DNA of 64,000 nt from an uncultured Gammaproteobacteria bacterium (GCA_964413735.1 CAYPSS010000002.1:80261-144260); one strand, 5' to 3'; positions 2,550 to 35,405 are shown, counted from the first letter of the stretch. Notes: generated by a model not told the origin, from the sequence alone. Numbers and translations are program-made.

Positions 2550-2619
2550 TTGTCACCCTGAGTAGCCTTTTTGTACATTGTCACCCTGAGTAACCTTTTT
2601 GTACATTGTCACCCTGAGC
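2550..2619. repeat. Tandem direct repeats, 28 bp x about 2.5 (TTGTCACCCTGAGTARCCTTTTTGTACA), followed by shorter reiterated GTCGAAGGGTG and GGGCTTC(G)ACAGCCT motifs up to about 2760
   Basis: Read directly from the sequence: copies at 2550-2577 and 2578-2605, and a partial copy at 2606-2619. There are no interspersed unique spacers, so this is not CRISPR-like. Confidence 0.85.
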
Positions 2620-2765
2620 TTGTCGAAGGGTGTCGAAGGGTGCTCGCCTCGTTTCGTGGGCGAAGCGGGTCGAAAAGGGTTGAAGTATGTATTGTTTAGT
2701 TGGGCTTCGACAGGCTCAGCCTGACAAATCGATGGGCTTCAGCCTAACACAACTACAATTTTTTT

Positions 2766-2800
2766 AAAGTGAAAAAGCAGCCCCGTTGAGACTGCTTTTC
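2766..2800 (-). terminator. Intrinsic terminator downstream of the high-GC gene
   Basis: Minus strand: AAAAGCAG-TCTCAACGGGG-CTGCTTTT followed by TCACTTT. Confidence 0.45.
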
Positions 2801-2886
2801 GTTGGAAATTTTTTGGAAGTGGATGAGGTTGTCATCACTGGGTGCTTGACGTTGCGTCAGCTTTCCCAGTGATCAGCGCACGACGT

Positions 2887-4002
2887 TCAGTCGCGCGCGC
2901 CCCACCCGTCGCGCCGGCGGTCCTTCTTGCCCCGGAAGCCACGGCGATCCCGACGGTCCTTCTTGTCCGTGACCACCAGGACCCCGTCTTCCATGGAGAA
3001 GACCCCCGCCAGCGCCGGATTCTTGAACCCGCGCTCGGAGTAGGAGGCCGCTTCGCGATCCTTGTCCAGCTTGCGCTGGACGTAGGTCCGCGTGCGCATC
3101 AGAGGCTTCACGATCATGTCCGTGAAGTCCCCCAGCTTCTCGGCCCTGTCCTCGAACCGCGGGTTGTCACGCTTCTTGAACGCGACCCAGTCGCGGTACT
3201 GGGGGAACATCAGTTCCGCCAGCACCACGGCGTGGACCCGCGGCATGATCAGGTAGACGGTCTCCCGCCTCTTGATCGTGACGACGCAGGGTTCTCCGCC
3301 CTTGGTCTTGATGAAGGGCTCATCGTTTCCCTTCACCGGTCCGTTGAGGCGCGCGCCGACCTGGGCCAGGAACTGCTCCATCGCGGTCTGGTAGACCGCG
3401 TAGGAGGACAGCTTCTCCAGCTGGTCCTGCCAGTCCTGACCACGCTGGAAGGCGTCCTTCGACGCCTCCTGCGCTTCCCGGATCTGGCCCCACACCGCCT
3501 GATGGGCGGCGTGGGCGGCCTCGAACTCGGGGGTGGCCATTTCGAACCACCCTGAGATGAGGTCAAGGCCCGCGTGAACCTTGTCGGCCAGCTGGCCGAC
3601 CGGTCCCGCCACCAGCTCGTCTTCCGACAAGCCGATCTCAGTCGCGGTCTCGACCAGCGGGGCAACCGCTCCGCGGATCTCCTCCGCCCACGCCACGCGG
3701 TTCAGGACGAACTCGGGGCTCAAGGTTTTGATGTCCTTGTTCCCCTTGGCCTTCACCCGAATTCCCCGCGCCATCGCGTGGGTCACGAACACCGCCCGCT
3801 CCTGGCCATCTTTCGTGACCAGGCCGTCGAAGTCCGTGACCAAGACCTCGGCATCGATGAGGGGGACGTCCTTGACGCCCTCGCCCTCTGCACACTGCAC
3901 CGTGATCAGTGAGAAGTTGTCCGGCTTGGCGCCGTACTTCTCGACGAACTGGGCCACGGTCATCGCCTTGCGCTCTTCGGGAACCTTCGTGATCTTCGCC
4001 AT
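2887..4002 (-). CDS. Hypothetical protein encoded by very high-GC DNA (about 65-68% GC), with an Arg-rich C-terminal tail; foreign or chimeric origin
   Basis: 371-aa ORF opening MAKITKVPEERKAMTVAQFVEKYGAK.... A GGAGG SD lies 7 nt upstream. Its high GC generates long spurious ORFs in every other frame (2842..3555, 3333..3665, 3581..4081 and others). The C terminus is RRDRRGFRGKKDRRRDGWGARD. No family recognised. Confidence 0.6.
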   Translation of the reverse strand: MAKITKVPEERKAMTVAQFVEKYGAKPDNFSLITVQCAEGEGVKDVPLIDAEVLVTDFDGLVTKDGQERAVFVTHAMARGIRVKAKGNKDIKTLSPEFVLNRVAWAEEIRGAVAPLVETATEIGLSEDELVAGPVGQLADKVHAGLDLISGWFEMATPEFEAAHAAHQAVWGQIREAQEASKDAFQRGQDWQDQLEKLSSYAVYQTAMEQFLAQVGARLNGPVKGNDEPFIKTKGGEPCVVTIKRRETVYLIMPRVHAVVLAELMFPQYRDWVAFKKRDNPRFEDRAEKLGDFTDMIVKPLMRTRTYVQRKLDKDREAASYSERGFKNPALAGVFSMEDGVLVVTDKKDRRDRRGFRGKKDRRRDGWGARD

Positions 4003-4338: not shown

Positions 4339-5865
4339 ATGACCTCATTTACCGGGAAAATCCGCGTACGTATTGCCCCCAGCCCAACCGGCTTTATGCA
4401 TATTGGCAATTTACGAACTATTTTATATAACTACTTATTTGCGCGTCACCATGACGGTACTTTTGTCGTGCGGATAGAAGATACGGATCGCACCAGATTT
4501 GTTCCGGGTGCTATGGAAGATATGCTCCAAACCCTTACTTGGGCCGGATTGGATTATGACGAAGGTCCGTTTGTAGAAAATAACAAAATTATTGAAAAAG
4601 GAGAGTTTGGCCCCTATATTCAGTCAGAGCGGTTAGATATCTATCAAAAGCACATCAAAACCTTAATTGACAAAAATCGGGCTTATTATTGTTTTTGTGA
4701 CAAAGATCGCCTGGAAAAATTACGCGCTGAGCAAGTGGAACAAAAACTTCCACCTAAATATGACGGTCATTGTCAAGATTTAACCAAAGAAGAAATACAG
4801 GAAAAACTTAATAATAAACAACCTTTTGTCATTCGTTTCCGCATGCCGGAAAATAGGGAAGTGCTATTTGATGACGCGATTCGTGGCACGATCAAAGTTA
4901 ATAGCAATGACCTGGATGATTTTGTATTAATCAAATCTGATGGTTTTCCCACTTATCATTTTGCCGTAGTCGTTGACGATCATTTAATGAAAATTTCTCA
5001 TGTCTTGCGTGGTGAAGAGTGGATTGCCAGCACTCCAAAACATATTCTATTATATGAAGCGTTTGATTGGCATGCACCAATCTTTGCCCACTTACCGCAA
5101 ATTCTCAATAAAAACAAGAAAAAAATGAGCAAACGCGACGGCGATGTGTCGGTCAAGGACTTTATCAGCGCCGGCTATATAAAAGAAGCATTAATTAACT
5201 TTATTGCTTTACTGGGTTGGAACTCGGGAACTGAACAAGAAGTTTACTCAATTGATGAAATGATTAAGCAATTTTCCCTAGATAACATTCATAAATCAGG
5301 CGCAATTTTTGACATCGATAAGCTGGATTGGCTAAATGGTGTGTATATTCGCGACTTATCATCAGAACAATTTGCTCAATTATGCTTACCTGTCCTAATA
5401 GAGAACAATTTAATTGTTCAAAAGTCAGATAAACTTTATAACAAGGAAACCAAAGAGGAAATTACACTATCATGGCTCAGACAAGCTTGCGAACTGGAAA
5501 AGGATCGCATCAAGAAAATAACGGAAATTTCTCAGGCCTTGAAATTCATATTTATTACTCAACCGGAATACGAGGCCAAAATTTTACCTTGGAAAAAATC
5601 AGATGCCCCCTCCGCCAAGCAAATTCTCGGCCAATTACAGGAATTATTATCAACCATTGTGGAAAATGATTTTACGACTGAATACTTAAACAAAACTGTC
5701 AGTGGATTTATTGAAAAAAACAATTTAACCAATGGGGAAGTGATGTGGCCATGGCGTGTGGCACTTTCCGGCTCTGACAAATCACCCGGGCCATTTGAAA
5801 TTGCACCGGTTTTGGGCAAAGAAAAAACCTTGGCAAGAATTAAATACGCTATCAATTTACTTTAA
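4339..5865 (+). CDS. gltX: Glutamyl-tRNA synthetase
   Basis: Class I synthetase motifs: PSPTGFMHIGNLRT (HIGH-type) and KMSKRDGD (KMSKS). The overall GluRS architecture is present. Confidence 0.9.
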   Translation: MTSFTGKIRVRIAPSPTGFMHIGNLRTILYNYLFARHHDGTFVVRIEDTDRTRFVPGAMEDMLQTLTWAGLDYDEGPFVENNKIIEKGEFGPYIQSERLDIYQKHIKTLIDKNRAYYCFCDKDRLEKLRAEQVEQKLPPKYDGHCQDLTKEEIQEKLNNKQPFVIRFRMPENREVLFDDAIRGTIKVNSNDLDDFVLIKSDGFPTYHFAVVVDDHLMKISHVLRGEEWIASTPKHILLYEAFDWHAPIFAHLPQILNKNKKKMSKRDGDVSVKDFISAGYIKEALINFIALLGWNSGTEQEVYSIDEMIKQFSLDNIHKSGAIFDIDKLDWLNGVYIRDLSSEQFAQLCLPVLIENNLIVQKSDKLYNKETKEEITLSWLRQACELEKDRIKKITEISQALKFIFITQPEYEAKILPWKKSDAPSAKQILGQLQELLSTIVENDFTTEYLNKTVSGFIEKNNLTNGEVMWPWRVALSGSDKSPGPFEIAPVLGKEKTLARIKYAINLL

Positions 5866-21362: not shown

Positions 21363-24332
21363 TTATATTTTACGAAACGGACAAATATCTCGAAATTCAC
21401 ATGTCGGACAAACAAATGGACCGGGAGTGGCGGTAAAATCGCCGTCCATAATCTTATTCATTCGATCCACCCATTTTGATTTCAAATTTTCAAGTTGTTT
21501 ATCCGTGCCCAAAAAACTAACCAATTTACCATTTGTTAAGTAATAATAAGTTAAGTTAATTGGTTTCAATTTCAATGATTTTTCTGTCGCCATTTGATAA
21601 AGCAACAATTGATCTTTATCATCAGACGACATTTTCTCATCTTTTGGTTTACCTGTTTTATAATCAATTATTTCCACACCACCTGACACATTATCAATTC
21701 GATCGATTCGACCGGTAATACGATAACCGTTCAATTCAAGCGAAAATGGCTGTTCCAAACATTTAACATCAGGATTTTGTTTTTGGAAATATTGGTAAAA
21801 AATTTTTAAAATTTTCTTTCCTTCTTCATAATACTTTTCTTTGATTTTCGGATCTTGATACCAATCATCACTCCAATTATTTTCATACATTTCATATAAT
21901 TGTGCCAATGAATTTTTGTTTTTTTTCTTAGAATCAGGTTGCAGTTCACCAAATAATTGAGCTTGTTCCAATTCTTTTTTTTCAAAAATAGACTCCACAA
22001 AATCTTTCAAAGTTTTATGGATCACATCACCAAAGGTAAAACTAGCCTTGCCAAAAGTTGGGATTTTCAGCACTCGCGCATAGTAAAACTGGCGTGGACA
22101 TCGAGCATACATATTAAGCGCGGAAAAACTAAATTTTTTCGGAATTGACAAAGTGATTTCTTCATTTGGTTGAACATTTTTAATTGCTTCGAAGTTCGCT
22201 TTTTTATTGTTATTCTTTTCTGCGGGAAAATACCCCATTTCAATTAAAAAGCGTGATATTTTTTTGGCTCGAGCTCCACCATAATCTGTGGCGGTAGTAA
22301 AAAACAAACCTTGTTTGGCGCGTGTCATCGCCACATAAAACAACCGTCGTTCTTCCTCTAGATGAAAATCTTCCTCAGTGGATAAATCTTCTCGCAACAA
22401 TGCCTCTGGAATAGTGATTGGATCATACCTTTCATCCGTAGGAAATTTACGATCCACCAAATTAACCATAAAAACATATTTGAATTCCAAGCCCTTGGAA
22501 CCGTGAACCGTCATCAATCGGACCATATCCGGTCCTTCATCTAATTCAAAACGTAAAGATCCGGTTTCACCGGCCTCCAATTCCATTTTCATCAAATTCA
22601 TGAATTCCGACAAACGCGCCATGGGATTGGCATTTTCAAAGCGCACGATTTTTTCCATTAACTGATTTAAATAACTAATTTGTGTCATCGTCTCTTTTTC
22701 AGCCAGTTGTGTTATATATTTCATATATCCGGACGAATACATAAAAGCAGTTAAAATTTCGCTAACTTTGTGATTTTTCACCATCAAGGAATCACTTTCA
22801 ATTTGCGCCAAAATTTTTCGTACTTGCACAATAGTTTCATCTTTTAATCCGGTAATGGAATTGATTTTTTGCATAGCCTCAAACAAGGATACTGTTTTCT
22901 TGCCAGCATAATGAACGATTCTTACAATATCAAAATGATCAATTTTCCAACATGGGAAATTCAAAACTTTGTACACCGCCGAACTTTCATGATAATCATC
23001 AAGTAGTTTGAAATAATTAAACACGTTCATAACCACTTCCTTGCTGTACAACCCACGCAAGGCCAAAAATTGATACGGAATTTCCGCGCGTTGCAAGGCT
23101 TGGGCAAACGGCTGGGCACTGTCATTGGCACGCACCAAAATCGCAAAATCGCTCCACTCCAAATGCAAATCATTTTGTTTTAATTGTAAAATTTTATTAA
23201 TCACTCCATTCACTTCATTTTCCGCCGTGTCAAATTGCAGATGTTCAACCGTTCCGGAGTAATTTGTTTGAGAAATTAATTTTTTATCGATTCTCAAAGT
23301 TGCTTCCAAACGATGAGGATTATTTTGCTTTATAAATTCATAGGCCTTGTCCAAAATCACCTGCGCGGAACGATAATTATTAATCAGAACAATTTCCTTG
23401 GAATCAGGAAAATCAAATTTGAATTGCATAATGTTTTCAATTGATGACCCGCGAAAACGATAAATACTTTGATCATCATCCCCCACCACCGTCAAATTAT
23501 TGGTTGGCAGAGATAACATTTTCACCAAAACATTTTGAACATAATTAGTATCTTGATATTCATCGACCAAAACATATTTGAATTTCTTTTGATAATATTT
23601 CAAAATTTGCGGTCGTTTTTCAAACAAATAAATCACATAATTGATCAAGTCGGCAAAATCAAGTGCGCTATTTTCCAAGAGTATTTGCTGATAAACTTCA
23701 AACGCTTTGGCCACCTCGCTTATTCGATTAATTTCCGTATTAATCAATTCTTGTTTTTCACTTTCATTAATGTCTGAATCAAAATCCATTTGCTTTATTA
23801 AATCATTTTTCTTTTTCGGATCATTCTTTAATTGTTTTGCATAACTTAAATAATCTGCCGGTTTGATTCCCTCATCTTTACAACGAGAAAAATGCTTTAA
23901 AAGCGCATGAATAAATTTGGTGGGGTTGCCCAGCGGCTGATAATAATCAAGAGCAAAACGATCCAAATTTTGACGAACCAAAAGCCAAGTTTCCGTTTCA
24001 TTTAACAGTTTATAATCCGGACTTAAACCAATATCCAGACAATGACGTTGCAATATTTTGTCACAAAATGAATGGAAAGTCATTATCCACAAGTCAACAT
24101 ATCCGTATGGCAATAATCGATCGACTCGTTCTTCCATTTCTTGGGCCGCTTTTTCCGTAAAAGTCAGAGCTAAAACCTCATCAGTCTTGGCTTTGTTTTC
24201 CATAATCAACCAAGCGATTCTCTCGGTAATCACTTTAGTTTTGCCGGTTCCGGCTCCGGCCACAATCAAAAGCGGGCCATCACCATGAGTAATCGCCTGC
24301 TTTTGCTCTTTGTTGCAATCCGAGATCGGCAT
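21363..24332 (-). CDS. UvrD/PcrA-family helicase fused to a C-terminal PD-(D/E)XK nuclease domain with a Cas4/AddB-like Cys cluster
   Basis: N-terminal Walker A LLIVAGAGTGKTKV and UvrD motifs. C-terminal YARCPRQFYY ... FVCPTCEFRDICPF matches the Cx(n)CxxCx5C Fe-S nuclease signature. Total length 989 aa. Confidence 0.75.
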   Translation of the reverse strand: MPISDCNKEQKQAITHGDGPLLIVAGAGTGKTKVITERIAWLIMENKAKTDEVLALTFTEKAAQEMEERVDRLLPYGYVDLWIMTFHSFCDKILQRHCLDIGLSPDYKLLNETETWLLVRQNLDRFALDYYQPLGNPTKFIHALLKHFSRCKDEGIKPADYLSYAKQLKNDPKKKNDLIKQMDFDSDINESEKQELINTEINRISEVAKAFEVYQQILLENSALDFADLINYVIYLFEKRPQILKYYQKKFKYVLVDEYQDTNYVQNVLVKMLSLPTNNLTVVGDDDQSIYRFRGSSIENIMQFKFDFPDSKEIVLINNYRSAQVILDKAYEFIKQNNPHRLEATLRIDKKLISQTNYSGTVEHLQFDTAENEVNGVINKILQLKQNDLHLEWSDFAILVRANDSAQPFAQALQRAEIPYQFLALRGLYSKEVVMNVFNYFKLLDDYHESSAVYKVLNFPCWKIDHFDIVRIVHYAGKKTVSLFEAMQKINSITGLKDETIVQVRKILAQIESDSLMVKNHKVSEILTAFMYSSGYMKYITQLAEKETMTQISYLNQLMEKIVRFENANPMARLSEFMNLMKMELEAGETGSLRFELDEGPDMVRLMTVHGSKGLEFKYVFMVNLVDRKFPTDERYDPITIPEALLREDLSTEEDFHLEEERRLFYVAMTRAKQGLFFTTATDYGGARAKKISRFLIEMGYFPAEKNNNKKANFEAIKNVQPNEEITLSIPKKFSFSALNMYARCPRQFYYARVLKIPTFGKASFTFGDVIHKTLKDFVESIFEKKELEQAQLFGELQPDSKKKNKNSLAQLYEMYENNWSDDWYQDPKIKEKYYEEGKKILKIFYQYFQKQNPDVKCLEQPFSLELNGYRITGRIDRIDNVSGGVEIIDYKTGKPKDEKMSSDDKDQLLLYQMATEKSLKLKPINLTYYYLTNGKLVSFLGTDKQLENLKSKWVDRMNKIMDGDFTATPGPFVCPTCEFRDICPFRKI

Positions 24333-24490: not shown

Positions 24491-25249
24491 TTACATTAAT
24501 TTACTTTTCACTACCGCCACCGCTCTTTCAAACTCCTCTCGATTAGCGCATTTGACAAATTGACGACTACCGAAAACCGGTCCACTCTTGGCGCGTCCTT
24601 GATCATCTTTTTCATCTGACCATGAAAAATTCTCTAAACCAAGAGAGTCTTCAAAAGTTCCAATAAAATAAATCCCATAATTTTCCGCATATTGCGTTCT
24701 AAATGGGAAACCGGCAATATAAGCACCTTGCATACATCCATCTTGAGTACCAAAAGGCACGCCATCTTTAACTTCAAATGAATGGGTCATTTTTTCAAAT
24801 TCCAATAAGGCCTGTTTTAATCTTTCCTCGTTATTTGTAATCAGTTTTTTAAAATCATTAATCTGTTGCATAAAGCGTTGGGCATCAATTTCTCCTTCAT
24901 CACAAATTGAACAAGCAGAGAGCCACCATATAGTTTCCGAATCAGGATCAGCCTGAGAAATTTCCCGGCGAATTTGCATCACCGCCTCTTTGCTGTAATT
25001 GGCATGCAACTTAGCGGACAACTCTTGTTTGTCACGTGGAATTAAATCAAGAGAACAAGCAATCCCCGCATCAAAACCCGGAGCTTTATCAATTAAATTT
25101 TTCGGAATTCTTTCAACCAATGATTCAGGAGAAATGTAAACCGGCCACTGACCAAGAGTGGCGACACGAGTAGCATTTTTGGCTACAACTTCCTTTATTT
25201 CCTCAATTGAGGTGTTTTTTTCTTGTTTATTAAAATCTTCGAATGACAT
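24491..25249 (-). CDS. Hypothetical protein (252 aa)
   Basis: ORF only. No motif recognised. Confidence 0.45.
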   Translation of the reverse strand: MSFEDFNKQEKNTSIEEIKEVVAKNATRVATLGQWPVYISPESLVERIPKNLIDKAPGFDAGIACSLDLIPRDKQELSAKLHANYSKEAVMQIRREISQADPDSETIWWLSACSICDEGEIDAQRFMQQINDFKKLITNNEERLKQALLEFEKMTHSFEVKDGVPFGTQDGCMQGAYIAGFPFRTQYAENYGIYFIGTFEDSLGLENFSWSDEKDDQGRAKSGPVFGSRQFVKCANREEFERAVAVVKSKLM

Positions 25250-25271: not shown

Positions 25272-25345
25272 TGGAGCGGGGCACGGGAATCGGACCCGCG
25301 ATTTATGCTTGGGAAGCACACGTATTACCACTATACTAGCCCCGC
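25272..25345 (-). tRNA. tRNA-Gly (anticodon CCC)
   Basis: Minus strand: GCGGGGC-TA-GTAT-AGTGGTA-ATAC-G-TGTGC-TTCCCAA-GCATA-AATC-GCGGG-TCCGATT-CCCGT-GCCCCGC-T-CCA. The acceptor stem is 7 bp, U8 is present, the D-loop carries GG, the discriminator is U, and CCA is encoded. The T-loop reads UCCGAUU, with C at position 55. Confidence 0.8.
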
Positions 25346-25411
25346 TCAATACCTTTTATTTTACCTGATTTTTATAAAAAAAACAAAGTGCTTATTTAAG
25401 CACTTTTCAAT

Positions 25412-25822
25412 TCAATCTACCGGCATCACATGCGGTTGATTTAAGGCATCAGGACGGATCAAATACAACATCACCTTTAACTTGGGGAATTTTCCTAAGA
25501 TTTTGCATCGGGCTTGAATCAGGTCATCATGATAAACTCGAACTTCATGCGCTCGATTTTCAAACGCCTGACTACCACCATAAGCGCCACAATCCATATG
25601 CGCAAATATATGTACTTCTTTTACTCCATGCAAATTAACGGCCAATTCAACATGATGCATAGCCAAAGATGAAGTTTCATCATCAACAAAATTCTTCTGC
25701 GTTCCGGCAATTGCCAGCAAATCATAGTTATGATTTAATCCTTGAGCATTCAGAAATTGACGAAGACAAGTTTGAAAACGAAAATCCATACATGCTACGA
25801 CCAATGCCGAACAACGATGCAT
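25412..25822 (-). CDS. Mini beta-carbonic-anhydrase-like protein, paralog 1
   Basis: CMDFR at the N terminus and HMDCGAYGG about 64 aa later reproduce the beta-CA Zn-ligand and catalytic-dyad pattern (CxDxR ... HxxCG) of Cab-type enzymes. It is only 136 aa. It is paralogous to 27989..28399. Confidence 0.5.
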   Translation of the reverse strand: MHRCSALVVACMDFRFQTCLRQFLNAQGLNHNYDLLAIAGTQKNFVDDETSSLAMHHVELAVNLHGVKEVHIFAHMDCGAYGGSQAFENRAHEVRVYHDDLIQARCKILGKFPKLKVMLYLIRPDALNQPHVMPVD

Positions 25823-25882
25823 TTCCCCTCCCCGAAAAAATCAAAGTGTCAACAGTTTATCATTGCCAATATATTTTGTCAA

Positions 25883-27886
25883 TCAATCTTTTTTGGCTTT
25901 ATTGACAGGCAAATCAAACCAAAATTCACTTCCCTGACCAATCTGTGATACGAAATCAAGCTGCCCTCCATGTAACTTTATAAAGTATTTGACAATAAAC
26001 AATCCCAATCCTGAGGCATCCGGCATCATCAACGAAGCATTTGATGCGCGGAAAAATCTAGTCCCAATATATTTTTGCTCATCAGGCGGGATTCCAATTC
26101 CCGTATCTTTGATTTTAAATACTATTTTATTGTTTTCCAATTTCAATTCCGTGATAATTTGACCTTTTTCCGGAGTGTAAATCAACGCATTGTGCAACAG
26201 TTTTTCAAAACACAATCGAATTTTGTCTTCATCAACCGATAACAACATCGGCAATTTAACGGGAGACTTTATGTCATCTAATTTAATTTTTTTATTTTCA
26301 ATTAAATCCTGTTGATTGACTTTCACCTCTTGCCAAATTTTTTCAAGTGAAACTTCCCCGGTTCTTAAATTGACCAATCGCCCTTGTTCAATATCCAAAG
26401 CTGTTAACAAATCACCGATTCGATTAATTACCTCCACATTAGCCACCAACGCATTTTGCAATGTCCCTTTTGAATTTACTTGTGATAATTTTTCCGGCTT
26501 ATCAAGTAAAGATTCCAAACTCCAGCGGATAGCATTCAGCGGTGTTCGTAATTGGTGCGAAACCACTTCAATAAATTTGGTTTTCAGAGCATCTAATTCT
26601 TTTTGTTGACGCTCCATTTTTTTTTGCTCGGAAATATTACGAATCACACAAACCACCACCGGACCGGTACTGTAATTAACAATGTTTCCCGCCAAACTGA
26701 TATCAATCAAACCATTGGCTTTACATTGCATTGTCAATTCTTGAGCAGACAGTTTTTCTTTCCTGGTGATTTTTGACATAATTTCCAGAAATTTCTTACG
26801 CTGATCAGATACAATAAAATCAATAAATGGCTGATTCATTAAACTTTTTTTCGTTCGACCACACAAATTCAACATTGCTTTATTAGCAAATTTCACTTTC
26901 AAATCTTTTAAGATCAACACGCCATCCTGCGCTTCATCCACCACCGCTTTATATTTTTCTTCACCGTTTCTAATTTGTTTAACTCGCTCGGCCACTTGTT
27001 TTTTCAATATTTGATTATAACCACGAATCAATATAATAACAATAGAAAATAATATCAAAATAATACCGAGAGTGATTAGTAAATATTTTAACCACAAAGG
27101 TATAATTTCAATTTTTTCCAAATCTTTACCAAAATATGATTGAATTAAACCATAATATATACTACTGCGATTATTTTTCAATTGCTTCAAATGTTTATCC
27201 AATCCTTCTAATATTGGAAATTTAGTTGATTTTGATTGAGCAAATTTCAATTCTGAAGGATTAAACATAATATTGGTGCGATCCACCTTGTACAAATCCT
27301 CATTGGCCAAACCGAAATACCAACTTACCACTCCAACATCAGCTTGCTCATCGTTTAATAATTGAAATACTTGATCATATTGATTAACTCTAATAATTTC
27401 CGCCGTTAGTCCGAAAGAAGCTAACATGTTTTCCAGTCCGAGTGGCGCGGAATAATGAATACTGGCATCCAAAATAGCGATCTTTTTATCTTGTAAATCA
27501 GAAAAAGATTCCAGCGTCAGACCTTGACGAGTATACATAACCCCCCAACTGATTAAAACCGTTTCTTGATTAAAATCATACTTTTCTTGTCGCTCTTCGG
27601 AAAAAGCCACATCAACCATCAGATCAATATCACCGTTTTCCAATTTTTTCAAATTATTATCCCAAGTATCATAAACAAATTCAATATTCCATTTTTCTTG
27701 CTTGGCAATGTAAGAAATTAAATCCGCCCAAAAGCCCTTGATCTCAAAATTTTGATCCCGATAAATCTTCGGGAAATTATCATAAACCCCCACCCTGATA
27801 ATCGATTGATTATTTTCTTGCGCCATTGTTTTTCCAATACCCAGAAACATGACACCGATTATCAACAAAATAAAAAATTTTTTCAT
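25883..27886 (-). CDS. Sensor histidine kinase with a periplasmic solute-binding (SBP_bac_3-like) domain, TM, PAS, HisKA and HATPase_c
   Basis: Signal peptide, then a periplasmic domain (RVGVYDNFPKIYRDQ...), TM (LITLGIILILFSIVIILI), H-box VVSHQLRTPLNAIRWSL, and the N/G-box region IKDTGIGIP...SGLGLFIV. No response regulator gene is adjacent. Confidence 0.8.
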   Translation of the reverse strand: MKKFFILLIIGVMFLGIGKTMAQENNQSIIRVGVYDNFPKIYRDQNFEIKGFWADLISYIAKQEKWNIEFVYDTWDNNLKKLENGDIDLMVDVAFSEERQEKYDFNQETVLISWGVMYTRQGLTLESFSDLQDKKIAILDASIHYSAPLGLENMLASFGLTAEIIRVNQYDQVFQLLNDEQADVGVVSWYFGLANEDLYKVDRTNIMFNPSELKFAQSKSTKFPILEGLDKHLKQLKNNRSSIYYGLIQSYFGKDLEKIEIIPLWLKYLLITLGIILILFSIVIILIRGYNQILKKQVAERVKQIRNGEEKYKAVVDEAQDGVLILKDLKVKFANKAMLNLCGRTKKSLMNQPFIDFIVSDQRKKFLEIMSKITRKEKLSAQELTMQCKANGLIDISLAGNIVNYSTGPVVVCVIRNISEQKKMERQQKELDALKTKFIEVVSHQLRTPLNAIRWSLESLLDKPEKLSQVNSKGTLQNALVANVEVINRIGDLLTALDIEQGRLVNLRTGEVSLEKIWQEVKVNQQDLIENKKIKLDDIKSPVKLPMLLSVDEDKIRLCFEKLLHNALIYTPEKGQIITELKLENNKIVFKIKDTGIGIPPDEQKYIGTRFFRASNASLMMPDASGLGLFIVKYFIKLHGGQLDFVSQIGQGSEFWFDLPVNKAKKD

Positions 27887-27988
27887 ATATTTTATTTACC
27901 TTTTTATTATACACCCTGATTAAAAAACAAGCACGAACATATTTTCTCCAAATAAAAAATCGACTTTGATGCCGATTTTTTTTATTAT

Positions 27989-28399
27989 CTATGATTGTTT
28001 TTCAAATTCAATTTTTTCTTCATTAATCAACGCAATGTAACGATGCACTGTTAATTTAGGGAAACTACTCAAAATTTTCGCCGCCGCTGATTGTAAATCA
28101 CTTTGATATTTATTTTTTTCTTCTTCACCACCGCCCAAGATTTGATTACCACCATAAGCGCCACAATCCCAATGAGCGATTAAATACACCTCCGACATAC
28201 CATGAAGTTTTTGTGACAATTCCACTTGTTTGAGAGCGGTTGCTTGAGTTTCTTCATCTAAAAAGGTTTTTTGTGTTCCGGCGATGGAAAAAAGATCATA
28301 ATTATTTTCCAATCCCTGCTCCAATAAAAAATTCCTTACTGCGGTTTGAAAACGAAAATCCATACAACAAACCACCAAAGCCTGACAATTATGTGACAT
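27989..28399 (-). CDS. Mini beta-carbonic-anhydrase-like protein, paralog 2
   Basis: CMDFRFQ ... HWDCGAYGG. About 50% identical to 25412..25822 along the whole length. Confidence 0.5.
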   Translation of the reverse strand: MSHNCQALVVCCMDFRFQTAVRNFLLEQGLENNYDLFSIAGTQKTFLDEETQATALKQVELSQKLHGMSEVYLIAHWDCGAYGGNQILGGGEEEKNKYQSDLQSAAAKILSSFPKLTVHRYIALINEEKIEFEKQS

Positions 28400-28411: not shown

Positions 28412-28864
28412 TTATTTTTGATGTTCTTCGCGCGACAATCCTTTTTGACCCAAACGCATTCGATGTTTACCAGCGACCCGAATACGCGCCAATTCCTTTT
28501 CAATCGCCGCTGATAAACCGGCAAACTCTTTGGCATCATAACGTTTGGTTTTCAAAGCTTCCTCCGCTCGTTGACGCGCCGCTTCCGCTTTGGCCAAATC
28601 CAATTCTTCCGCTCGTTCCGCCGTATCTGCCAAAACCACCACCTTATCAGCCAGAACTTCAATAAAACCGCCCGAAACCGCCAATAAGGTTTCCTCATTG
28701 TTTTTTTTCACTTTTATTTCTCCGGGTTGCAAAACCGCAATCAAAGGAATATGGTTGGGCAAAACAGTGATTTCTCCTTGCATAGTTGGCAAAGTGATTT
28801 GATCCACTTCATCCTTGTAAACCACGCGTTCCGGGGTAGCGATTTTGAAATTTATTTTCACCAT
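28412..28864 (-). CDS. atpC: F-type ATP synthase epsilon subunit
   Basis: N-terminal beta-sandwich MVKINFKIATPERVVYKDEVDQITLPT... followed by a C-terminal helical hairpin. Last gene of the atp operon. Confidence 0.85.
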   Translation of the reverse strand: MVKINFKIATPERVVYKDEVDQITLPTMQGEITVLPNHIPLIAVLQPGEIKVKKNNEETLLAVSGGFIEVLADKVVVLADTAERAEELDLAKAEAARQRAEEALKTKRYDAKEFAGLSAAIEKELARIRVAGKHRMRLGQKGLSREEHQK

Positions 28865-28870
28865 ATTGAA

Positions 28871-30265
<1,395 letters not shown>

Positions 30266-30273
30266 TTATTAAT

Positions 30274-31227
30274 TTATTTATTTTCCAAAGCCGCTTTACC
30301 GGAACTGATTTCCGCAATTTCCTGAGTAATGGACGCTTGACGCGCTTGATTATATACCAGCGTTAATCCATCAATCATATCTTTGGCGGCGTCACTAGCA
30401 TTACGCATACTGAGCATTCGTCCACTGTGTTCTGAGGCATCGGATTCCAACACCGCTTGATAAATTTGAACTTCAATTAAACGCGGTAACATGTTTTCCA
30501 AAACAATTGCCGGACTAGGTTCAAAAATATATTCAAAATTATAATTTTGTTTTTTCAAATATCGTTCTTTCTTTTCATTGATAAACTCCTTAGTGATTTC
30601 AATCCCCTTACTGGCGCCAACCGCTCCCAAATATTCATCGGGCGTCGGATCAACCGGTAACAATTGTTTTACTCTGGCCACTTGCTTAATCGGTGAAATA
30701 AAATCCGTATAAGCAATCATTACTTTATCATAATTTCCCTTAGCATATTCACTAACCACCATATGAGATAAAGAAGAAATTTCCGCCGCTGACATAGTCA
30801 CATCTTGTTTAATAAAATCCGCCATCACCTTTTGACCGCCGGCCATAATAATGTCACGGCCCTTGGATCCCAGGGTAATAATATCGGTTTGTGTCACTTG
30901 TTTTTCATGTTTTTTTATGGAACTAAGCGCTTTAGCCACCACATTTTGATTAAATGAACCGCATAAGCCACGATTAGAGCTGATAACAATCAAAGCTACC
31001 TTTTTAACGGTTCTTTTTTGCAACAAAGCATGCGCCGACTTATCCGTTTTTTCCGCCAAATGCAAAATCGTGGTCCACGCCAAATTAGCATAATCGCGCG
31101 TGGCTAGTACATTATTAACCGCCCGACGCATTTTGGCCGCTGATACCATTTCCATGGCTTTGGTAATTTTTCTGGTATTACCAACCGAACGAATTCGGCG
31201 TTTTAATTCTCTGGTTCCTTGAGACAT
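30274..31227 (-). CDS. atpG: F-type ATP synthase gamma subunit
   Basis: Position between atpA and atpD. Conserved N- and C-terminal helices (MSQGTRELKRRIRSV... and ...EIAEISSG). Confidence 0.85.
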   Translation of the reverse strand: MSQGTRELKRRIRSVGNTRKITKAMEMVSAAKMRRAVNNVLATRDYANLAWTTILHLAEKTDKSAHALLQKRTVKKVALIVISSNRGLCGSFNQNVVAKALSSIKKHEKQVTQTDIITLGSKGRDIIMAGGQKVMADFIKQDVTMSAAEISSLSHMVVSEYAKGNYDKVMIAYTDFISPIKQVARVKQLLPVDPTPDEYLGAVGASKGIEITKEFINEKKERYLKKQNYNFEYIFEPSPAIVLENMLPRLIEVQIYQAVLESDASEHSGRMLSMRNASDAAKDMIDGLTLVYNQARQASITQEIAEISSGKAALENK

Positions 31228-31232
31228 AATGA

Positions 31233-32783
31233 TTAAATCTTGGTTTCTTGTTTTGTTTCAATGAATTCTTCGCTTAAACCTTTAAATTCCACAATTACAT
31301 TTTTTAACATTTCCGTAATTTCATCGGTCAATTCTTTTTCTTTGTTTATTTTATCCAAAACATCCTTGCCATTGGTAGCAAAATATTTATGAAACGCTTT
31401 TTCGAATTCACCCACCTTAGCAACATCCACATCATCCAAATAACCGTTGATCACGGCAAACAAAATCGCCACTTGATTAGCCACCGGTACCGGTTCATAA
31501 ATCCCTTGTTTCAAAATTTCAGTAATACGAGCACCGCGTCTTAACTGTTGTTGGGTAGTTTCATCCAAATCCGAACCAAACTGAGCAAAAGCCGCCAATT
31601 CTCGATATTGGGCCAACTCCAAACGCAATTTTCCGGCTACTTTTTTCATCGCTTTAATCTGGGCGGCTGATCCCACACGTGAAACAGATAACCCCACATT
31701 AACCGCCGGACGAACACCTTGATAAAATAAATCGTTTTCCAAGTAAATTTGACCGTCAGTAATGGAAATAACATTAGTTGGAATATAAGCGGAAACATCG
31801 CCGGCTTGCGTTTCAATGATCGGTAATGCCGTTAATGAACCACCACCGTTATCCTCATTTAATTTACAAGCTCTTTCGAGTAAACGGGAATGAACATAGA
31901 AAATATCTCCCGGGTAAGCTTCACGACCCGGTGGTCGGCGCAAAAGCAAAGAAATTTCTCGATAAGCGACCGCATGTTTACTCAAATCATCATAAATCAC
32001 CAAAACATCTTTACCTTGATCCAAAAAATATTCGCCCATTGCACAACCGGCATAAGGCGCAATATAACTCAAAGCCGCCGGATCTGACGCACCAGCCAGC
32101 ACAATCGTGGTATATTCCATAGCCCCCATATCTTCCAATTTGGAAACAATTTTCGCGATTTTAGATTCTTTTTGTCCAATGGCTACATAAATACAAATCA
32201 TGTTCTGCCCTTTTTGATTAATGATCGTATCAATGGCAATAGCTGTTTTACCGGTTTGACGATCTCCGATAATCAACTCGCGTTGACCTCGTCCGATCGG
32301 AATCATGGAATCAATAGCTTTAATACCGGTTTGCACCGCTTGATGCACTGACTTTCTGGTAATAACACCGGGGGCGATTTTTTCCACCGGATAAAAATTC
32401 TTAGTTTTGATTTCTCCTTTACCATCCACCGGTTCACCGAGCGGATTTAAAACCCGTCCAATAATATTTTCACCCACCGGTACTTGTAAAATTTTTCCCG
32501 TTGATTTCACCACATCACCTTCTTTGATCTTACGGTAATCTCCGAAAAGCATGGCGCCGACACTATCTTCTTCCAAATTCAAAACCACACCAACCACCCC
32601 GCTACCAAAATCTAACATTTCCGAAGCTTTGGCTTCACTTAATCCGGACACCTTGGCAATACCGTCACCCACTTCCAAAACCCGACCGATATTTTCGACG
32701 GAAACCTGCTCGGTAAATCCTTCGATTTGACTTCGCAATGATTCAATAATGGAATTATTATTACTATTTTTTTCTTTTACCAT
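31233..32783 (-). CDS. atpA: F-type ATP synthase alpha subunit
   Basis: P-loop [18 protein letters not shown]. Length 516 aa. Confidence 0.95.
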
Positions 32784-32806
32784 ACTAAATTGAATTTATC
32801 TTATTA

Positions 32807-33346
32807 TTATATGATTGAATTTATTTTCTTTTTCAAATTACGAATTTTACCCCGAATACTACCATCAAAAACCTGATCACCAACCGTCACCACCATGCCT
32901 CCGATAATATCCTTGTTAATTAAATTTTTCATTAATATTTTCACTTCCAACTTCGCCGTCATTAAATCAATCAATTTCTTTTCTTGCTCAGCTGATAAAG
33001 GAATAACGGTTTCCACGAAAATTTCCTTGATATCTTCTTGGTGTAAATAATTTTTTTGCGCTAACGTAATAATTTGAGTCAAATACTCCAGTTTTTTTTC
33101 TTTTACCAAAAGTAAAATAAAATTAATGGTTCGAGCACTGACAAAATCCTGAAAAACCAACCCCAAAGCTTTTTTCTTCAAATCCAAAGAAACATGGGAA
33201 TCAAGTAAATATTTTTTTAAATCCGGATTGTCGTTGATTTTTTCTGAAACATTGTGCAAGTCAGCCAAAAGTTGATCGAAAATTCCTTGTTCGCGACCGA
33301 TTTTGGTTAACGCCAAAGCATAATGTTTCAAATTAACGATTTTCAT
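32807..33346 (-). CDS. atpH: F-type ATP synthase delta (OSCP) subunit
   Basis: Position and size (179 aa). Helical N-terminal domain. Confidence 0.7.
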   Translation of the reverse strand: MKIVNLKHYALALTKIGREQGIFDQLLADLHNVSEKINDNPDLKKYLLDSHVSLDLKKKALGLVFQDFVSARTINFILLLVKEKKLEYLTQIITLAQKNYLHQEDIKEIFVETVIPLSAEQEKKLIDLMTAKLEVKILMKNLINKDIIGGMVVTVGDQVFDGSIRGKIRNLKKKINSII

Positions 33347-33348
33347 AA

Positions 33349-33852
33349 TTATGATTTTTTCAATTCTTCAATCACATCATCAATTAATTGACGATGTTTT
33401 TTCTCATCAATCGTTTGGTTGGCAATTTTCCCGGAAGCCAAAAGCACCAAATCAGCCAATTCACCCTTAACTTCATGCATCATTTTTTGACGTTCATTGT
33501 GAATTTCCACCTTTGCTTCCGTAACGATTTTCTCAGTTTCTTTTTTAGTTTTCTCGATTTTTTGCCGACGAATTTCTTCCACTTCTTTTTCCGCTTCCAA
33601 AATTATTCGCTGTCCTTCTTTACGGCCTTTTTTAATTTCTTTTTGCTTTTCCACTTCCGCTTTTTTCAAATTTTCTTCAATAATTTCCGCGTTTTTCAGC
33701 CCTTCATCAATTCTTTGCGAACGGTCATGCATTAATTTCATTAATGGACGAATCCCATAATAATACAAAACCGCCAGCACAATTAAAAAGTTAACTCCCT
33801 GAGCAATCAATAATTTCCAATCTATGTAAAATGTTTCAATCAATTTTTCCAT
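33349..33852 (-). CDS. atpF: F-type ATP synthase subunit b
   Basis: A single N-terminal TM helix followed by a long charged helix (EKQKEIKKGRKEGQR...). Position in the operon. Confidence 0.75.
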   Translation of the reverse strand: MEKLIETFYIDWKLLIAQGVNFLIVLAVLYYYGIRPLMKLMHDRSQRIDEGLKNAEIIEENLKKAEVEKQKEIKKGRKEGQRIILEAEKEVEEIRRQKIEKTKKETEKIVTEAKVEIHNERQKMMHEVKGELADLVLLASGKIANQTIDEKKHRQLIDDVIEELKKS

Positions 33853-33911
33853 ATAAATTTATAATAATTTAATCTGGCTCTCTGAATTGTTTCAGAGAGC
33901 GAATCAAACTA

Positions 33912-34130
<219 letters not shown>

Positions 34131-34269
34131 TTATCACGAATGATTTTTATCATCCATGAACAATTATTTGTCAATGACAATCGACTGTTAAAATTTGGTT
34201 TATTTAAAGTCGGTTTGACAATTAATTAATTAGCGAAAACAAACTTAGAAATTTACTTTCGTCAAACAA

Positions 34270-35124
34270 TTAATGTTCCTCTTCCGTCGCGGCAATGGTG
34301 TAATAAACCAAAGTTAAAATAGCAAAAATGAGTGCCTGTACCACCCCGACAATCACTTCCAAGAATATGAAAGGTATCGGTAAACCAAAAGCAAAAATCA
34401 CCGCAATCGATGACAACAAAACTTCCCCGGCAAAAATATTACCGAATAAACGAAAAGACAATGAAGCCACTTTGGCGATTTCTCCCACAATTTCAATCAA
34501 ACCAACAAAAAACTTGATTGGATTAACAATCACAATACTGAAATCCTTGCGAATTTTTCGTGGAATATCCAAAAATGATTTTACATTGAAAAATTTATTG
34601 GCATGACGCAAAAACCCAACGGTCACCATTCCGAAAATGTTGGCCCCCACCACACTAATCAGGGCTAATGCTAAAGTCGTATTTAAATCCGCTGTCCCAC
34701 CACGAAAAAACGGAATGAATTTACCATGTTCAATAAATCCAATTGACCCGATTCCCGGCAAAAGTCCCATCCAGTTGTTCAATAAAACAAAAATAAAAAA
34801 AGTGAACACTATAGGGAACACTTTTTCCGATTTTTTGCGATCTTGAGTAACTGAGTCGCACATTTTCAAAGCGCCTTCAATCACCATTTCAAAAACATTT
34901 TGAATCCCGCGCGGAATTAAACGCAATTTAGCTCTCAAAGTTAATGAAAAAGCAATAACAATTATGACCACGAGCCAAGTATTCAAAACCGAGTTGGTAA
35001 TATTAAATTCACCCACATGCAAAACCGGTTCTGCCGCCAAAGATATTTCATGACTGACATGTTCGGTTTCCGCATGTACCTGATTATTATTCCCATCATG
35101 ATTTTCATTATATGTTTGTGCCAT
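34270..35124 (-). CDS. atpB: F-type ATP synthase subunit a
   Basis: Polytopic membrane protein with the conserved Arg-containing helix (...SLSFRLFGNIFAGEVLL...). Confidence 0.85.
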   Translation of the reverse strand: MAQTYNENHDGNNNQVHAETEHVSHEISLAAEPVLHVGEFNITNSVLNTWLVVIIVIAFSLTLRAKLRLIPRGIQNVFEMVIEGALKMCDSVTQDRKKSEKVFPIVFTFFIFVLLNNWMGLLPGIGSIGFIEHGKFIPFFRGGTADLNTTLALALISVVGANIFGMVTVGFLRHANKFFNVKSFLDIPRKIRKDFSIVIVNPIKFFVGLIEIVGEIAKVASLSFRLFGNIFAGEVLLSSIAVIFAFGLPIPFIFLEVIVGVVQALIFAILTLVYYTIAATEEEH

Positions 35125-35126
35125 AA

Positions 35127-35405
35127 TTATTTTTGTTTTTCCGTTTCCCCATCTTTTTGCTCTTGTTTGGTAATTTCATCGATTGATATTCGTGATTGTT
35201 TGACTATTCCAATATTAGTAATCACAAAAGCGCAAAAAACAGTAATTAAAAACAACCACGGTGAAGTATCAAAACGCTTATCCAGCCATCTACCGACAAA
35301 TACCGCCAAAATAATCGGCCCCACAATCCACGCTGACATTTGCGCAAACAATTTCAGGGCCGGAGCCCACCAACTATACTTTTGGTTGTCATTTTTCCGG
35401 ATCAT
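35127..35405 (-). CDS. AtpZ/AtpI-like small membrane protein preceding atpB
   Basis: AtpZ-like motif W..G..LGL.LDK.F.T.PW. in MSAWIVGPIILAVFVGRWLDKRFDTSPWLFL. First gene of the operon. Confidence 0.6.
   Translation of the reverse strand: MIRKNDNQKYSWWAPALKLFAQMSAWIVGPIILAVFVGRWLDKRFDTSPWLFLITVFCAFVITNIGIVKQSRISIDEITKQEQKDGETEKQK

Follow-up and report, generated by a model that had tools for sequence, protein, structure and literature searches.

We analysed a 64,000-nucleotide stretch of DNA attributed to an uncultured Gammaproteobacteria bacterium (GCA_964413735.1 CAYPSS010000002.1:80261-144260), referred to here at its full length as the window. In it, a gene for a 667-aa sensor histidine kinase is flanked by two genes for 136-aa proteins resembling beta-carbonic anhydrases (beta-CAs), which we call CA_up and CA_dn. 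All three open reading frames (ORFs) lie on the minus strand, as described in an earlier, first-pass annotation of the sequence, which had proposed that the small proteins and the kinase form a sensory module for CO2 or bicarbonate. The beta-CA likeness stood up to our analysis, whereas the partnership with the kinase was rejected on neighbourhood evidence from related loci, from orthologues of the kinase and from the individual cases L023 and P0003. The small genes are instead linked to the F1Fo ATP synthase (atp) operon that precedes CA_up. In the direction of transcription, the minus strand carries the atp operon, CA_up, the kinase gene, CA_dn, a tRNA-Gly(CCC) gene, a 252-aa ORF and a UvrD/PDDEXK helicase gene, with the following features.

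28412-35405, minus strand: F1Fo ATP synthase operon (identified by Pfam on L001, a near-identical contig, with positions transferred to the window)
35127-35405, minus strand: atpI
34270-35124, minus strand: atpB
33912-34124, minus strand: atpE
33349-33852, minus strand: atpF
32807-33346, minus strand: atpH
31233-32783, minus strand: atpA
30274-31227, minus strand: atpG
28871-30253, minus strand: atpD
28412-28864, minus strand: atpC
27989-28399, minus strand: CA_up, 136-aa Pro_CA_2 protein, mini beta-CA-like (PF20393 match and AlphaFold2 model)
27954-27981, minus strand: hairpin with an A-tract and a U-tract, candidate terminator of the unit formed by the atp genes and CA_up (RNA folding)
25883-27886, minus strand: orphan sensor histidine kinase, 667 aa (Pfam domains)
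25854-25882, minus strand: promoter-like site TTGACA-17-TAAACT with TG upstream (consensus scan, 10/12 matches)
25412-25822, minus strand: CA_dn, 136-aa Pro_CA_2 paralogue (PF20393 match)
25385-25406, minus strand: intrinsic-terminator-like hairpin and T-run directly 3' of CA_dn (consensus scan; 9-bp stem, then GTTTTTTTT)
25272-25345, minus strand: tRNA-Gly(CCC) (ARAGORN and Rfam)
24491-25249, minus strand: 252-aa hypothetical protein without a family match
21363-24332, minus strand: UvrD/PDDEXK (AddA-like) helicase-nuclease, 989 aa (Pfam families on L001)

Linkage to the ATP synthase operon

CA_up starts 12 nt past the stop codon of atpC. For comparison we used six genome loci, mostly from Candidatus Falkowbacteria, the nearest relative with a name, and 80 metagenome loci (32-66% identical to CA_up). 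A CA-like gene was found downstream of atpC in all six genome loci, and atp genes were present in 39 of the 80 metagenome loci. When the count was limited to the 37 metagenome loci that extend at least 3 kb upstream, 24 (65%) carried atp genes, and in 13 an atp gene lay within 300 nt of the CA-like gene; by our own estimate, chance would give about 2% for any gene picked at random from a ~1-Mb genome. The gap between atpC and the CA-like gene is often 2-60 nt, which implies co-transcription. Single look-ups added further atp-linked cases, namely P0174 (8-nt gap), P0019 and L103.

The position of the CA-like gene relative to the atp operon falls into five classes, including the common one after atpC. 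The gene lies between atpA and atpG in L047, it is divergent from atpB in L062 and L067, and in L066 two copies, on the strand of atpI-atpB, lie upstream of these genes. P0073/L022 shows an in-frame fusion of the CA-like domain with an AtpI membrane hairpin, and the fusion gene is directly followed by atpB, whose product is 47% identical to that of the window. The CA-like gene resembles atpI and atpZ, which are likewise small non-core genes at the edge of atp operons, and in this one lineage it is even joined to AtpI. However, AtpI is a membrane hairpin, in contrast to the soluble CA-like protein with its enzyme-like zinc site. In the open-access literature searched we found no report of a link between PF20393, the Pfam family of the small proteins, and atp operons, nor did a bacterial F1Fo operon with a CA gene turn up. 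In a further related locus, L020, a peptidyl-prolyl isomerase gene (4626-5363) is located between atpD and atpC, another sign that the atp operons of these relatives tolerate inserted accessory genes.

The carboxylate site of the AtpE c subunit encoded in the window reads AEAIAIY. We take this to be an H+-type c subunit, as it has none of the Gln, Ser or Thr residues of Na+-binding sites, and the motif suggests that the ATP synthase of the window is proton-coupled. CA_up and CA_dn have no signal peptide and are therefore presumably cytoplasmic. Altogether, we consider it fairly probable that CA_up is a cytoplasmic enzyme acting on CO2/HCO3-, encoded in the operon of the Patescibacteria H+-ATPase and serving that pump, that CA_dn is its diverged local duplicate and that the kinase is incidental.

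Several points weigh against this reading. Thirteen of the 37 well-sampled loci have no nearby atp gene, and their contexts are diverse and without a common theme (Band_7, Na_Ca_ex, permease, sortase and FGE-sulfatase genes). In some family members the N-terminus is of the signal or lipoprotein type, so that a tie to ATP synthase is not exclusive for the family. Many of the same loci have also kept the helicase gene downstream, and the loci all seem to come from relatives within the Candidate Phyla Radiation (CPR). Part of the signal of a position after atpC is therefore inherited synteny, and much of it could be. In addition, catalysis and substrate of PF20393 proteins are what we infer, and no paper on the family was found in the literature searched. 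The promoter and terminator calls described below are consensus matches only, and within the small sub-clade that includes L103 a functional tie to the kinase is still conceivable. Since synteny accounts for part of the signal, the functional argument rests on the alternative arrangements and on the AtpI fusion.

The helicase retained downstream, as a mark of general synteny conservation, and the loci without a nearby atp gene would also be expected if the CA-like protein were an ordinary housekeeping CA that supplies bicarbonate to carboxylating enzymes in the cytoplasm, its place beside the atp genes reflecting inherited order in streamlined CPR genomes. Carbamoyl-phosphate synthase uses bicarbonate, and in L022 the CA-like::AtpI fusion gene (45-1115) is transcribed divergently from carA, the gene for the small subunit of that enzyme, which fits the same explanation. 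However, the five positions around the atp operon, including the insertion between atpA and atpG and the fusion to AtpI, are hard to square with passive inheritance. Where the helicase has not been retained, the CA-like gene is still found with the atp genes, and the co-transcription implied by the short gaps after atpC points the same way. We therefore regard a purely housekeeping role as unlikely.

Family, motifs and predicted fold of the small proteins

The two proteins are not of an undescribed family. Both score above the gathering threshold of the Pfam family PF20393 (Pro_CA_2, entitled "putative carbonic anhydrase"), with 57.9 bits for CA_up and 51.5 bits for CA_dn against a threshold of 30. 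They do not reach the cutoff of the canonical beta-CA model PF00484 (Pro_CA; 19.0 and 12.9 bits against 25.7), and no NCBIfam model matches either of them. The paralogy of the two proteins was borne out, with a measured identity of 56% over 120 residues in place of the roughly 50% given before. When 1.84 billion cluster representatives were searched exhaustively with a profile, with members accepted at E <= 1e-3, this recovered 2,035 members of PF20393, most of them 130-145 aa long. In size and motifs the window proteins are typical of this family, and we noted no difference from it at the protein level.

As read in the first-pass annotation, both proteins contain CMDFR and H(W/M)DCGAYGG. These motifs correspond to the Cys-His-Cys zinc ligands (CxDxR...HxxC) and the Asp/Arg dyad (D14 and R16) of beta-CAs. 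In an alignment of 23 close homologues, C12, D14, R16, H76 and C79 were invariant or nearly so. Among 110 diverse members, the invariant positions (CA_up numbering) were C12, D14, R16, D35, G41, H66 and H76, while D78, C79, G80, A81, Y82 and E94 were nearly invariant; D14 and R16 were thus invariant in both alignments. CA_up and CA_dn retain every residue that is conserved family-wide, and CxDxR and HxxC were both found in 142 of the 149 top cluster representatives.

The AlphaFold2 model of CA_up, built on 23 homologues, reached a pLDDT of 90.4 and a pTM of 0.86. It opens with strand beta-1 at residue 7 with no helix before it, so the helical N-terminal arm, with which beta-CA monomers clasp their partner, is absent. 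The earlier remark that the proteins are about 30 aa shorter than the smallest beta-CAs also held, as the nearest solved small beta-CAs have 164-172 aa. Since the model starts at the first core strand, it is the N-terminal arm of ordinary beta-CAs that accounts for the ~30 missing residues. Foldseek searches of the PDB with this model returned almost exclusively beta-CAs as top matches (E down to 1e-4, TMq about 0.6). Similarly, a profile of the 110 members reached the S. mutans putative CA 3LAS (E = 1.7e-4), Rv1284 of M. tuberculosis (3.3e-4) and Cab of Methanothermobacter (2.2e-3) with the zinc motifs aligned, which places them onto CMDSR and HTDCG of 3LAS.

The window proteins share the CxDxR and HxxC(G) motifs and the alpha/beta core with these smallest solved beta-CAs (Cab, 1G5C, 170 aa; Rv1284, 1YLK, 172 aa; 3LAS, 166 aa), which are about 30 aa longer. 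They differ from them in a longer spacing between the Cys and His motifs, with 64 residues here and typically 62-68 across PF20393, and in the additional family invariants D35, G41 and H66. In the profile alignment to one solved beta-CA, 3LAS, D35 and H66 of CA_up face non-identical residues; they may belong to a proton shuttle, a second site or an interface. Judged from the sequence and the predicted structure, CA_up and CA_dn are minimal zinc-site-bearing proteins of the beta-CA fold and members of a named but uncharacterised family.

The zinc site could in principle serve another reaction, such as the hydrolysis of carbonyl sulphide (COS), CS2 or another substrate, or the protein could lack catalysis and help to assemble or regulate the ATP synthase. 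The scores below the PF00484 cutoff, the absent arm and the extra invariants, two of which face other residues in 3LAS, would fit such a role. The 110-member profile also weakly touches the CS2 hydrolase 3TEN (E = 0.06) and the COS hydrolase 3VQJ (E = 0.63), and AtpI, to which one family member is fused, is a c-ring assembly factor. On the other hand, all five residues of the beta-CA catalytic motifs are conserved family-wide, and the best matches in both sequence and fold are bona fide CAs. For these reasons we consider a function other than that of a CA improbable.

CPR bacteria are largely fermentative, and their F1Fo complexes are often thought to hydrolyse ATP to build up a membrane potential. 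CA_up is in effect one more gene at the end of an apparently H+-type F1Fo operon, in an association that is widespread in Patescibacteria/CPR, and CA_dn is a faster-evolving duplicate with promoter-like and terminator-like signals of its own. If CA_up does serve the proton-translocating ATPase, the protein would interconvert CO2 and HCO3- plus H+ at the cytoplasmic face of the membrane. One possible benefit is faster delivery or buffering of protons at the cytoplasmic half-channel of a pump that in fermentative CPR bacteria is probably ATP-hydrolysing. Another is a higher local concentration of bicarbonate, an anion known to activate F-ATPase hydrolysis. (Bi)carbonate activates hydrolysis by F-ATPase and inhibits synthesis (PMC9583940), and bicarbonate is among the oxyanions reported to reverse the inhibition that IF1 exerts on mitochondrial F1-ATPase (PMC3603449).

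A more far-reaching version, which we put forward only tentatively, is that the PF20393 mini beta-CAs are dedicated, operon-encoded partners of the F1Fo complex of Patescibacteria, sometimes tethered to the membrane through AtpI, that make H+ and HCO3- locally, both feeding an ATP-driven proton pump and activating it; in the sub-clade of the window, the kinase might also have been recruited to regulate the unit. If true, this would be a bacterial counterpart of the pairing of CAs with proton pumps in animals and would hint at which way the ATP synthases of CPR bacteria run. The nearest functional parallel is in acid-secreting animal cells, where carbonic anhydrase II (CA II) supplies protons to the V-ATPase or the H+/K+-ATPase; the so-called CA transport metabolons belong here too. 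The functional logic is alike, in that a CA beside a proton-pumping ATPase speeds the turnover of protons and bicarbonate. The animal pairing differs in that its enzymes are alpha-CAs, eukaryotic and not encoded in an operon with the pump. CPR bacteria mostly have no respiratory chains, and a CA-like gene travelling with the atp genes would be a concrete handle on the role and direction of their F1Fo complexes. For the first time, the atp link would also place PF20393, a Pfam family of about 2,000 sequence clusters that is so far uncharacterised, in a functional setting.

The sensor kinase and the duplicated gene

The domain architecture of the kinase agrees with the first-pass annotation. According to Pfam, a signal or transmembrane segment is followed by an SBP_bac_3 domain (residues 30-253), a transmembrane segment and PAS (310-420), HisKA (435-492, 33.5 bits) and HATPase_c (552-662, 74.3 bits) domains, and the translation contains the H-box SHQLRTPL. 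The input logic of BvgS and EvgS is followed by sensor kinases whose SBP_bac_3 domain is extracytoplasmic. The window kinase shares with this group the path from a solute-binding fold through a transmembrane segment and PAS domain to the HisKA/HATPase core; unlike BvgS/EvgS-like kinases it has a single SBP domain, no receiver or Hpt domain and no adjacent response regulator. We searched the 391 ORFs of at least 50 aa in the window with a receiver-domain hidden Markov model and, by phmmer, with CheY, PhoB, Spo0F, OmpR and NarL, and found no receiver domain (best E 0.39). The earlier statement that no response regulator lies nearby thus extends to the whole window. This would leave room for unconventional partners of the kinase, and the CA-like proteins are its physical neighbours.

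Orthologues of the kinase that are 45-57% identical and have the same architecture occur in other CPR bacteria. For three full-length orthologues from other CPR genomes (47-48% identical), neither a CA-like gene nor a response-regulator gene was found among the neighbours. Therefore, the orphan state is a habit of this kinase family. Conversely, the kinase is absent from all six genome loci, and the 80 metagenome loci yielded a single kinase-like match, in L077, which is an unrelated convergent gene. L007 (74% identical to CA_up) and P0003 (68%) both lack it, and in all about 90 related loci are without the kinase.

Conservation of the three genes as a unit had been set beforehand as the test that could refute the proposed module, and the triad is largely not conserved. 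L103 is the sole partial exception: there, atpC is followed by a CA-like gene (73% identical to CA_up) and a kinase orthologue, after which the contig ends. The order atpC, CA-like gene, kinase has thus been kept although the two kinases are only 57% identical. As the kinase is present in L103 and missing from L007 and P0003, we conclude that it entered the slot in a small sub-clade and stayed there.

In two of the three other CPR genomes, the kinase orthologue lies directly 3' of a gene for a P-type (E1-E2) cation ATPase (L015, 2129-7019; L016, 2429-6992). An association of the kinase family with ion pumps could be behind this, P-type in these genomes and F-type with a CA-like protein in the window and L103, or it could be a coincidence.

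The signals between the genes were inspected as well. The hairpin at 27954-27981, directly after the CA_up stop codon, has an 11-bp stem and a folding energy of -11 kcal/mol (z = -2.77 versus shuffled sequences); it was missed by the consensus terminator scan, which demands at least three G-C pairs. The promoter-like TTGACA-17-TAAACT site falls within the 60-nt gap 5' of CA_dn, where a strong ribosome-binding site, GGGGAGGGG, is also readable. The arrangement suggests that CA_up, the kinase gene and CA_dn belong to three predicted transcription units.

We then considered the origin of the two-copy state. Among 292 family sequences, the best non-self match of CA_dn is CA_up (55.8%), followed by CA_up orthologues. 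With the genes that follow atpC in other loci, CA_up itself shares 74% (L007), 73% (L103) and 66% (L023) identity, and it groups with those of L007 and L023 in a neighbour-joining tree and by pairwise scores. A comparison of six strain-level contigs, from which the mis-anchored CA_dn match of L006 was left out, showed no nucleotide differences in CA_up and 2-6 synonymous changes in atpC, while the copies of CA_dn carried 5-10 nucleotide differences, including 1-4 non-synonymous ones. With CA_up as its closest match and more substitutions between strains, CA_dn is therefore a faster-evolving local duplicate. The possibility that CA_dn is one of the second copies seen in other genomes was also considered; the neighbour-joining tree, in which it formed a separate and long branch, did not decide the matter, and its closest pairwise match is CA_up.

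Duplication is common in the family. Tandem or split pairs of CA-like genes were present in 16 of the 80 metagenome loci, with those of L053 and L098 being evidently recent according to the tree, and in the genome locus L010 two CA-like genes follow each other in tandem, without any gene in between. In L023, two copies bracket two paralogous membrane-protein genes rather than a kinase, and thus the bracket recurs with different cargo. Since beta-CAs are obligate dimers, with the active site at the interface, the duplicated copies may form homo- or heterodimers. Some relatives (P0052, P0085, P0070 and P0095) are two-domain fusions with zinc motifs only in the C-terminal domain. The predicted model of P0085 (pLDDT 77, pTM 0.78) gave its best global superposition, a moderate one with TM < 0.5, with CsoSCA (TMq 0.43-0.48), a beta-CA of carboxysomes in which one domain is live and the other degenerate. 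KaiC ranked top by E-value for this two-domain model and was discounted, as the match consisted of Rossmann-like local repeats (TM about 0.2, rmsd 22-25 Å). The two-domain relatives share with CsoSCA and other single-chain tandem beta-CAs the possession of one zinc-bearing domain, whereas the window has two separate intact genes. These observations are suggestive, though not conclusive, of a dimer as the functional unit, in which case paralogue pairs could form heterodimers.

The best explanation of the kinase sandwich is that an atp-linked mini beta-CA gene was duplicated and an orphan kinase gene inserted into a variable slot; the arrangement is most likely a by-product of these two events. 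The helicase gene is found 3' of the atp and CA-like genes in many related loci and forms the conserved far boundary of the slot. Between the atp/CA-like unit and the helicase, the kinase gene, the tRNA-Gly gene and the 252-aa ORF are lineage-specific cargo. The 252-aa ORF has no Pfam or NCBIfam match and no tblastn match in any related locus. The tRNA-Gly gene was considered as a conserved integration marker of the slot and rejected, as no tRNA was found in any of 15 related loci.

Considering the rarity of the kinase in related loci, its orthologues without CA-like neighbours, the bracket around other genes in L023, the terminator-like and promoter-like signals that part the three genes, and small proteins without a signal peptide facing a sensor domain outside the cytoplasm, we find it very improbable that the CA-like proteins, catalytic or not, are accessories of the kinase, for example by setting the HCO3- level sensed by its periplasmic or PAS domain.

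Further observations

A separate deep clade of the family consists of tandem CA-like pairs of 190-200 aa, as at 5204-6417 of L057 and also in L059, L070, L073 and L086. These proteins have signal-peptide or lipoprotein-type N-termini. Next to the L057 pair are two SPFH/Band_7 genes and one for an FGE-sulfatase-like protein, and its vicinity holds no atp genes. The proteins of this clade are probably exported versions of the CA-like domain. The CA-like domain stands in very different surroundings in P0051 (905 aa), another relative, found among the cluster representatives, which carries a pair of Pro_CA_2 domains at its N-terminus, then BspA-type leucine-rich repeats and, at the C-terminus, a Hint domain. 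In L018, a Pro_CA_2 protein of 172 aa (P0179, 162-680) is encoded beside matches to an ELO fatty-acid elongase, zf-nanos, DUF5856 and an SNF2 helicase, a context that looks eukaryotic or giant-virus-like rather than bacterial.

Across positions 8000-64000 of the window, the large ORFs are almost all on the minus strand and the GC skew is uniformly and strongly negative, at about -0.2 to -0.3. Both are consistent with a location within one replichore, with genes co-oriented with replication. Positions 2700-3900 (flanks 2550-4002) form a 1.2-kb island of ~65% GC in a genome of ~35% GC. A 28-nt tandem repeat of 2.5 copies (2550-2618) and a weak, sub-threshold Rfam match to RF02901 (2600-2803, 32 bits against 97) were detected there. 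The repeat adjoins a 371-aa ORF of the island (2887-4002, minus strand) that has an ordinary-looking composition and no Pfam match; this ORF may be a horizontally acquired gene.

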